Assembly: GCF_988242995.1 (NCBI RefSeq)
Contig: NZ_OZ547043.1
Length of the DNA stretch: 64,000 nt
Direction: 5' to 3' (one strand)
Made by a program: the position numbers and the translations under genes. The notes below the pieces were generated by a model, which was given only the letters and a program-made list of their open reading frames with translations, did not search any database and had not been told where the DNA came from. This document shows, one piece after another, positions 49,032 to 49,949 of this stretch (the stretch's first letter is position 1; every line of letters starts with the position of its first letter).

Positions 49032-49949
49032 ATGGTTCAGAAAATTTTGTCGGATAAGGTTATGAATGAAAGAACAAATGCGTATTACTCTTATTATCTT
49101 GGAGAGCGTAATATCTCCGTACTGCCCCTTAATGTTTATGATCCCCCGGAACGTTTTATCGCTTACATAAAAAAAAACAGAGAAAATCTGAACATCACAC
49201 TTTCAGATTTTGAACTTGAACAAATCATTTCTGGTATGCGTCTGAAGGCACTGGCCTCCCTGGTGCCCCTGGAAAAAATATCCTGGATCGCGGGCAGTGA
49301 ACGCGCATGCTTATTTTCCTGGTATCTGTTGATGCAGTTTATCCAGAATAACAGGACAAAAATAAGCGCAGACTTGCTTCAAAAGAATAAACTGTATCTT
49401 AAAGAAGAGTATTTAGAAGGGAATGCCTTCCCGTCGGACTCATCGACACAGTTCAGACAAATACTCAGAGTTCTCGATATTCTTTCTGATAAGAATTTGC
49501 GGGATGAGTGGATAATCCAGACCAAAGACAGATGGATACGGGCATTTAAATCAAAGAGTCCTTTCAGTTACCTCCTCCCGGAGAACGAACATGAATGCAT
49601 ATGGACATGGAATTATTTGAAGGGAAAAAATATTGCACTGGAAAAACTGGCCAGTTTTCCTGATTCTGCTGATATTTACCACGCAATTCACCTTTCATTT
49701 GACATATGGGTTACCTGTCCACTCACCTCACCTGACGATATAAAAAATTTCAGAAACAGTTTCAATAAGGCCAAGGCGCAGCGCAAGTACAAAAAAATGC
49801 AGGAAGATAAAGTCAATGTACAGTTTTTTCTTGACGCAGAAACCAGGGCGCAGCTCAAAGAATTATCGAGGGTCAGAAGACTCAGTACCGGCGAAATGCT
49901 GCATGACCTGATTGTTGAAGAGTATAAAAGGTACCGACATTCCAGATAA
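49032..49949 (+). CDS. Hypothetical AT-rich protein (305 aa) with possible C-terminal ribbon-helix-helix-like tail
   Basis: GAGGA RBS before ATG 49032; AT-rich Lys/Asn/Ile codon usage unlike neighbours; C-terminus ...NVQFFLDAETRAQLKELSRVRRLSTGEMLHDLIVEEYKRY. Confidence 0.6.
   Translation: MVQKILSDKVMNERTNAYYSYYLGERNISVLPLNVYDPPERFIAYIKKNRENLNITLSDFELEQIISGMRLKALASLVPLEKISWIAGSERACLFSWYLLMQFIQNNRTKISADLLQKNKLYLKEEYLEGNAFPSDSSTQFRQILRVLDILSDKNLRDEWIIQTKDRWIRAFKSKSPFSYLLPENEHECIWTWNYLKGKNIALEKLASFPDSADIYHAIHLSFDIWVTCPLTSPDDIKNFRNSFNKAKAQRKYKKMQEDKVNVQFFLDAETRAQLKELSRVRRLSTGEMLHDLIVEEYKRYRHSR

Follow-up and report, generated by a model that had tools for sequence, protein, structure and literature searches.

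A widespread island protein family with three helical-bundle repeats, a C-terminal ribbon-helix-helix domain and remote similarity to MatP

What does the 305-aa product of an AT-rich gene do on an integrative island beside pheV, where the gene lies between alpA and a YeeP-type GTPase gene? In a preliminary description, the gene was taken for an orphan of separate acquisition, placed in a slot for variable cargo and ending in a ribbon-helix-helix (RHH) or Arc-like tail. Here we examined it within a 64-kb stretch of DNA (the window; Table 1), for which the feature map was taken from an annotated, near-identical genome, and compared it with 13 other gene contexts. These came from Citrobacter, Chromohalobacter, Serratia fonticola, Ferrimonas, Marinobacterium, Yersinia/Morganella, Salmonella and others, namely, an E. 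coli paralogue (53% identical), Edwardsiella, a Klebsiella IncFIB/HI1B plasmid and three further contigs.

Table 1. Positions of the target gene, its parts, the candidate DNA elements and the neighbouring island features (window coordinates unless a locus is named)
Feature	Position	Strand	Remark
tRNA-Phe (pheV)	38647-38722		adjoining yqgA; island site
Integrase	38920-40185		
IS66-family element (tnpA, tnpB, tnpC)	41015-43195	-	
Two zinc-ribbon genes	43529-44352	-	DUF7828/Zn_ribbon_11
Inovirus-Gp2-family gene	44612-45181	-	
TATCACCTKAT copy	44889-44899	-	exact TATCACCTGAT, inside Gp2-family gene
Hha/YmoA-family gene	46044-46220	-	leftward arm
alpA-type gene	46928-47134	+	
200-aa hypothetical	47229-47831	+	
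Noncoding spacer 5' of target	47935-49031		1.1 kb
TATCACCTKAT copy	48413-48424	+	best palindromic form, TATCA-CC-TGATA; in the 1.1-kb spacer
Sigma-70-like promoter match	48942-48970	+	TTGACC-17-TAAACT; weak consensus match only
Conserved noncoding box	48982-49006	+	-10-like TATTAT, then TATCACCTTATTATGTTT; candidate promoter core and operator
TATCACCTKAT copy at target promoter	48988-48998	+	within the conserved box
Target CDS, 305 aa	49032-49949	+	ATG start; WP_000250235.1, annotated "hypothetical protein"
Bundle repeat 1 (aa 8-76)	49053-49259	+	weakest of three copies; AF2 helices 8-25, 39-48, 59-76
Bundle repeat 2 (aa 80-173)	49269-49550	+	motif ISWIAGSERACLFSWYLL; hhalign versus repeat 3
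Bundle repeat 3 (aa 176-252)	49557-49787	+	motif ECIWTWNYL; aligns to MatP N-terminal four-helix bundle
RHH (aa 258-304)	49803-49943	+	strand VNVQFFLD, helix A ETRAQLKELSRVRR, turn LSTG, helix B EMLHDLIVEEYKRY
Intrinsic terminator	49973-50018	+	CCCCCGCCACC...GGUGUGCGGGGG plus U-run, between target and GTPase gene
YeeP-type GTPase gene	50034-50906	+	
IS102/isrC-type sRNA (Rfam)	51023-51259	+	74.6 bits versus gathering score of 46
Ag43, then IrmA, DUF905, DUF932, antirestriction, YeeS/RadC, YeeT, CbeA/CbtA	3' of IS102 RNA		
840-aa ORF 3' of Ag43	54239-56761	+	WP_016238748.1, annotated hypothetical protein
TATCACCTKAT copy	56787-56797	+	exact TATCACCTGAT, about 50 bp 5' of IrmA-family gene
ACTACGTAGT / ACTAC-N3-GTAGT sites at relatives	L008 6054-6068; L010 1861-1870; L012 7956-7965; L014 501-510; L006 about 7931-7943		

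A conserved coding gene and its family

The open reading frame proved to be as first delineated, with the quoted C-terminus and a ribosome-binding site (GGAG, 7 nt before the ATG). Its GC content is 0.405 (GC3, 0.448), compared with GC/GC3 values of 0.585/0.632 (GTPase gene) and 0.565/0.652 (alpA), and Lys, Asn, Ile, Tyr and Phe together make up 31.8% of the residues versus 13 to 20% in the adjacent genes, in agreement with the AT-rich, Lys/Asn/Ile/Tyr-rich composition previously claimed for it amid GC-richer neighbours. The start and the full length are kept in 14 orthologues with identities as low as 48%, and dN/dS against orthologues is 0.10 to 0.19 (Salmonella, 0.19; Serratia, 0.12). The target is thus a real coding gene under purifying selection. 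The possibility that it is an untranslated or decaying pseudogene, whose AT-richness would come from lost constraint, had been raised at the outset and now has a negligible probability. Truncated copies of 158 to 287 aa are indeed frequent in databases, and some of those from E. coli bear the name Ybl124. However, besides the low dN/dS, the full-length frame is retained down to about 20% identity across 174 clusters of relatives, 1347 genomes have 80% or more of the locus, and the AF2 model reaches a pLDDT of 91; we rejected the pseudogene on these selection and conservation data.

A strong hairpin with a U-run follows the stop codon (−25 kcal/mol, z = −4.0). With a promoter-like site and a terminator of its own, the gene therefore looks like a self-contained transcription unit. 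The program-called ORF for the GTPase starts at a GTG (49971) and would cross the terminator hairpin; we prefer the RefSeq start (ATG 50034) because it fits the terminator better.

The gene is also no orphan. Its locus is found in 1839 of 5426 complete E. coli genomes (34%), at up to five matching places per genome, and is always annotated as "hypothetical protein". A word-indexed search returned relatives from Enterobacterales only, down to 48% identity, and a related-locus search with alignment A1 returned one locus, from Serratia sp. Exhaustive HMMER searching of 1.84 billion representatives yielded the 174 clusters of relatives at E ≤ 1e-3, nearly all of about 300 aa and 20 to 31% identical to the target across most of the length. 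When the AF2 model was compared with AFDB50 by Foldseek, 144 matches at E ≤ 1e-3 were obtained, again uncharacterised proteins of about 300 aa from Gammaproteobacteria (e.g., Tolumonas, Nitrincola, Ferrimonas, Photobacterium, Acinetobacter and Psychrobacter) and Alcaligenes. The single target protein gave no usable match in Pfam, NCBIfam or PADLOC, no homologue was present among 50,697 phage records, and a literature search on WP_000250235, ybl124 and MatP-like proteins on islands found no relevant paper. The profile and structure searches proposed earlier for this protein thus drew a blank among curated families and in PADLOC and at the same time uncovered a large family, an RHH domain and a remote similarity to MatP. 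Therefore, the target belongs to a widespread, uncharacterised family of about 300-aa proteins that lacks a curated model or literature.

Domain architecture and the link to MatP

The target consists of three tandem helical-bundle repeats followed by a C-terminal RHH domain. The AF2 monomer computed with an 80-sequence alignment is all-helical (pLDDT, 91.3; pTM, 0.82), and hhalign detects the internal repetition, with probabilities of 97.9% for aa 80-173 versus aa 174-252 (E = 4-5e-13), 92.7% for aa 1-79 versus aa 174-252 (E = 4.4e-7) and 74% for aa 1-79 versus aa 80-173 (E = 2.8e-5). Each bundle copy is headed by an aromatic motif, for which the family consensus is F-x-W-L...Q-C-x-W-A-W-x-Y.

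In the RHH strand, polar and hydrophobic residues alternate, and N262, Q264, F265, L267 and D268 are invariant. Pfam RepB-RCR_reg is matched by 22 of 80 family members at E ≤ 0.1 (4 of them at ≤ 1e-3) and RHH_1 by 7 of 80, and the family profile matches the PDB chains of SvtR (2kel, E = 0.003), a CopG-family protein (6iya, E = 0.019) and CopG (2cpg, E = 0.42). Further, the two-helix fold can be superimposed on solved RHH proteins. Matches in PHROGs were all weak (Arc-like repressor, E = 0.13), and neither single-sequence phmmer and profile A1 against PDB sequences nor Foldseek of the model against the PDB gave a match. Residues 259-268 are coil in the AF2 monomer, in which the RHH strand is not formed; RHH proteins are obligate dimers whose two-stranded antiparallel sheet enters the major groove, so that the absence of the strand from a monomer model is to be expected. 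The earlier impression of an RHH or Arc-like C-terminus is therefore supported by the strand-helix-turn-helix order, the RHH profile matches and the SvtR and CopG chains. An RHH DNA-binding protein on a mobile element is of an ordinary kind, but the combination of three MatP-type bundles with an RHH at the C-terminus is an undescribed architecture.

The first hint of MatP was a weak match of the Pfam model for its N-terminal domain at aa 186-219 (E = 0.86), along with a W-x-W-x-Y-L motif common to both proteins. When a C-terminal profile made from the last 130 residues of 40 diverse family members was searched against 177,635 PDB sequences, the best match was MatP (7nyw_I, E = 1.1e-4), with a collinear alignment across the entire bundle and RHH of MatP (profile 11-122 versus MatP 8-131); the same search gave E values of 0.009 for an E. 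coli MatP chain and 0.43 for a Yersinia MatP chain. Alignment of the whole family to the E. coli MatP sequence by hhalign gave a probability of 61% (E = 8e-5, 101 columns), and that of alignment A4 to a single MatP sequence covered the RHH alone. In the reciprocal direction, a phmmer search of the family and shuffled decoys with E. coli MatP as the query returned one weak match (P0104, E = 8e-4) and no decoy. The search for MatP homologues yielded near-identical E. coli sequences only and hence no diverse MatP profile. These results suggest a remote but significant homology between the target and the "bundle plus RHH" DNA-binding module of MatP, and the family would be, as far as our searches show, the first MatP relative outside the chromosomal MatP family.

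Island context and promoter-proximal DNA elements

The target lies between alpA and the YeeP-type GTPase gene, as the preliminary description had placed it, but comparison of this position across related islands does not bear out the idea of a slot for variable cargo. In 12 of the 13 contexts, down to about 23% identity, the family gene occupies the same place, opening the rightward arm divergently from an AlpA/Gp2-like operon; the exception, Marinobacterium, is interrupted by a transposase fragment. A position next to the AlpA/Gp2-like module is common to all 13 contexts, whose hosts range from Enterobacterales to Chromohalobacter and Ferrimonas. The leftward arm begins 350 to 1000 bp away with AlpA and/or a YagK_YfjJ_C / REP_ORF2-G2P (inovirus Gp2-like) gene, and all 13 contexts contain at least two of integrase, AlpA, inovirus-Gp2-like, DUF932 and RadC genes. 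Downstream of the family gene, enterobacterial islands have the YeeP-type GTPase gene and then DUF932, antirestriction, RadC and CbeA/CbtA genes; the GTPase gene is directly 3' in seven of seven enterobacterial GTPase-type loci and is absent from loci L006, L008, L010, L012 and L013 and from plasmid L022. Outside enterobacterial islands, the directly adjoining downstream gene is DUF932, a glycine-zipper gene or an integrase. The module with the family gene also resides on 16 large, mostly conjugative plasmids. On the Klebsiella quasipneumoniae plasmid L022 (NZ_CP131698.1, 173562-192473), two Gp2-like genes, AlpA and zinc-ribbon genes accompany the family member, together with DUF905, DUF932, antirestriction, RadC and CbeA/CbtA genes and without a GTPase or integrase gene in the stretch read. 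The gene set of the islands corresponds to the core described for Pseudomonas tmRNA islands, which jumbo-phage transduction mobilises (PMC12595487). The target is thus conserved backbone of AlpA/Gp2-type islands.

The low GC content can be read in the same way. The family gene with 400 bp of upstream sequence lies 10 to 18 points under both flanks in the window and at 13 of 13 other loci (for example, 0.42 versus 0.59 to 0.62 in Chromohalobacter and 0.29 versus 0.47 in one contig). Since the drop is present at every locus measured, low GC is a trait of the family and not the mark of a recent insertion, and the separate acquisition once suggested falls away.

The backbone position also bears on whether the target might be toxin-antitoxin or anti-phage cargo, in a slot where CP4-57 has rnlAB, with the RHH serving as an antitoxin-type autoregulator. 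We consider this highly improbable, and we rejected it because PADLOC reports 0 families, because the gene is backbone rather than variable and because no partner toxin is conserved, the downstream gene varying among GTPase, integrase, DUF932 and glycine-zipper genes. Further, antitoxin RHHs are N-terminal on small proteins, whereas that of the target is C-terminal on 305 aa.

Several features of the window are noted here in their own right. An IS66-family element and an IS110 fragment sit between the island integrase and the leftward arm. The zinc-ribbon genes are again found beside the Gp2-like gene in Citrobacter, Salmonella, the E. coli paralogue locus and the plasmid, and the IS102 RNA is placed between the GTPase and Ag43 genes, as in K-12 CP4-44. 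The alpA gene and the 200-aa gene are on the + strand in the window, co-directional with the target, and the alpA block is on the opposite strand, divergent, in Salmonella (L019) and all other loci read; the 200-aa protein is 61% identical to a 197-aa protein of L019. This block is apparently inverted in the window, an arrangement that would leave the 1.1-kb spacer 5' of the target.

Most loci read have either a conserved box (TATCACCTTAT) or a palindrome (ACTAC..GTAGT) at the promoter of the family gene. The box, (G)TTATTATCACCTTATT(A/T)TGTTT, stands at −42 to −45 of the ATG in E. coli, Salmonella, Serratia, Edwardsiella and Citrobacter; in the last of these it has one change at 40% protein identity, and in the aligned upstream regions it is better conserved than the orthologue proteins. 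The string TTATCACCTTATTWTGTTT occurs once in the window, with 0 occurrences expected by chance, and is kept in five orthologous loci. RNAalifold found no conserved structure in the 5' region (−0.27 kcal/mol, no covariation), and we therefore treat the box as a DNA element.

Palindromes of 13 to 14 bp abut a −10-like hexamer in Citrobacter (ACTAA-TAT-TTAGT) and Edwardsiella (ACTTA-TTAT-TAAGT), and the matching place is taken by ACTACGTAGT in Chromohalobacter and one contig, TCTACGTAGT in Serratia fonticola, ATTACGTAGT in Marinobacterium and ACTAC-TCA-GTAGT in one further contig. Among distant members in unrelated hosts, ACTACGTAGT or ACTAC-N3-GTAGT is found 36 to 70 bp 5' of the gene; with at most one mismatch, ACTACGTAGT has five matches in 230 kb of loci, four of which lie at −36 to −64 of four distant members. 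Arms of 5 bp around a 3-bp spacer, which is the geometry of matS, are seen at L006, L002 and L015, and the upstream palindromes are in this respect a candidate operator with matS-like geometry. The simplest candidate binder of the boxes and palindromes is the RHH protein encoded next to them. In addition, the window has four exact copies of TATCACCTKAT, all of them in a 12-kb part of the island (block-shuffle mean, 0.04; maximum, 1).

A candidate regulator, its rivals and known systems

We hypothesize that the target is a dimeric, sequence-specific DNA-binding regulator acting at the divergent control region of the island, a proposal to which we would give about an even chance. From the features described above we infer DNA binding, which is likely, together with dimerisation, the sites bound, and the regulatory role with its outcome. 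By analogy with RHH proteins and MatP, two C-terminal RHH domains would pair and, through a shared two-stranded sheet, recognise a short site that is palindromic or repeated; the bundle of MatP type beside the RHH may add flanking DNA contacts, and the two further bundle copies might provide extra contacts, oligomerisation or signal sensing. The protein would be a resident regulator of integrative islands with integrase, AlpA, an inovirus-Gp2-like initiator, DUF932 and RadC, transcribed as its own unit where the island arms diverge. Its binding site is probably the box or palindrome next to the −10 element of its own gene, through which it would repress or tune that gene, and this autoregulation may set the AlpA/Gp2 arm, for excision and replication, against the rightward arm.

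Consistent with such a regulator are the hhalign-supported bundle repeats (97.9% and 92.7%), the all-helical model with its high pLDDT, the position of the gene as the first of the rightward arm and divergent from AlpA/YagK_YfjJ_C in 12 of 13 contexts, the conserved box or palindromes at its own promoter, the exact TATCACCTKAT copies, which all lie inside the island, and the promoter-like site and terminator that belong to it. However, the similarity to MatP is remote (Pfam E = 0.86; RHH only with A4 in hhalign; nothing in the PDB by Foldseek), the box of the E. coli clade falls short of a clean palindrome and may in part be just the −10 element, the conserved elements could instead be bound by AlpA, the integrase or a host factor, and the inverted alpA block means that the divergent-promoter logic is not literal in the window.

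The main rival, which we hold to be unlikely, is a DNA-binding protein that assists at an origin or nick site. It would bind and bend the AT-rich intergenic region beside the Gp2-like rolling-circle-type initiator and help this enzyme to nick or initiate on the excised island. Such roles have precedents, as TraY, TraM, NikA and CopG are RHH accessory proteins of relaxosomes or replication. However, operators are typically located where the conserved palindrome or box is found, right against the −10-like hexamer of the gene itself. In the stretch of L008 that was read, the family gene and AlpA occur in the absence of a Gp2-like gene; in the window, 3.8 kb separate the target from the Gp2-family gene; and no origin is defined for these islands.

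An organising role similar to that of MatP is less likely still, and we regard it as improbable. In this reading, binding at a small number of island sites would allow the protein to bridge or condense the circle formed on excision, to help in its segregation (perhaps with the GTPase) or, in the way that MatP acts on MukBEF, to displace SMC complexes. Among solved structures, MatP is the closest relative over the bundle plus RHH, the 11-bp motif has four exact copies over 12 kb of the island, and the GTPase gene is directly downstream in all seven enterobacterial GTPase-type loci, but the multi-copy motif is confined to the E. coli island, a terminator separates the target from the GTPase gene, the five loci and the plasmid listed above lack a GTPase, and the protein ends at RHH helix B, where MatP continues into a C-terminal coiled coil. 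We also entertain, as a very improbable extension, a mobile branch of the MatP lineage that would bind a handful of element-specific palindromes and, in the manner of MatP and MukBEF, keep host SMC-type complexes off the excised island by unloading or blocking them, or else organise the excised circle in some other way; the complexes concerned might be, with the same slight probability, MukBEF or Wadjet-like defences that cut small circles. If this were true, the chromosomal MatP may be a domesticated descendant of an element protein of this kind.

A regulator of the divergent control region, the reading that we favour, would matter beyond this locus. Few integrated elements of Enterobacterales are as common as CP4-57/CP4-44-type islands and their relatives, which carry adhesins, toxin-antitoxin pairs and defence cargo, and yet, AlpA apart, little is known of how their genes for excision and replication are controlled. 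For this control, the family offers a conserved, unannotated candidate and brings with it testable candidate binding sites. Its constancy in a very common island class and its link to MatP are, like its architecture, new to the literature, and the latter gives a handle on the origin of a Ter-organising protein. Further, the conserved low GC of the family is a caution against using composition alone as evidence of separate acquisition.

Of the known systems, MatP (PF06303 plus PF17414; PDB 4D8J, 3VEA and 7NYW) resembles the target in having a four-helix bundle, a basic linker and then an RHH; the aligned part covers aa ~186-300 of the target, including the W-x-W-x-Y-L helix, at about 20% identity, and the matS geometry (5-bp arms, 3-bp spacer) resembles the 13-bp candidate palindromes at family relatives. 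However, the target has two extra bundle copies and twice the length of MatP, and the family ends 1 to 5 residues past RHH helix B (14 close and 80 distant members), without the coiled coil that MatP requires for tetramerisation and ZapB contact. MatP is a single-copy chromosomal housekeeping gene, whereas the target is on the pheV island, in 34% of E. coli, multi-copy and also on plasmids, and matS (GTGACRNYGTCAC) has no site in the window at ≤ 1 mismatch. We therefore rejected membership in the MatP family on the missing coiled-coil tail, the mobile, multi-copy gene and the lack of matS in the window.

Compared with TraY, the TraM N-domain and NikA, the target differs in domain architecture and belongs to an island without conjugation machinery or a defined oriT. 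Master regulators of the SaPI Stl and phage CI types share with it a stand-alone regulator gene divergent from an excision/replication operon (12 of 13 contexts), but they are HTH proteins with no relation to the target in sequence or fold, no inducer or helper is known for the target, and its alpA block is inverted in the window. CopG, RepB-RCR_reg and Arc/MetJ repressors resemble the C-terminal ~45 aa of the target in their strand-helix-turn-helix, and its candidate operator, which abuts its own −10 element, is a further likeness. However, these repressors are proteins of 45 to 100 aa that have their RHH at the N-terminus or close to it, whereas the RHH of the target is preceded by a 250-aa region of three helical bundles.
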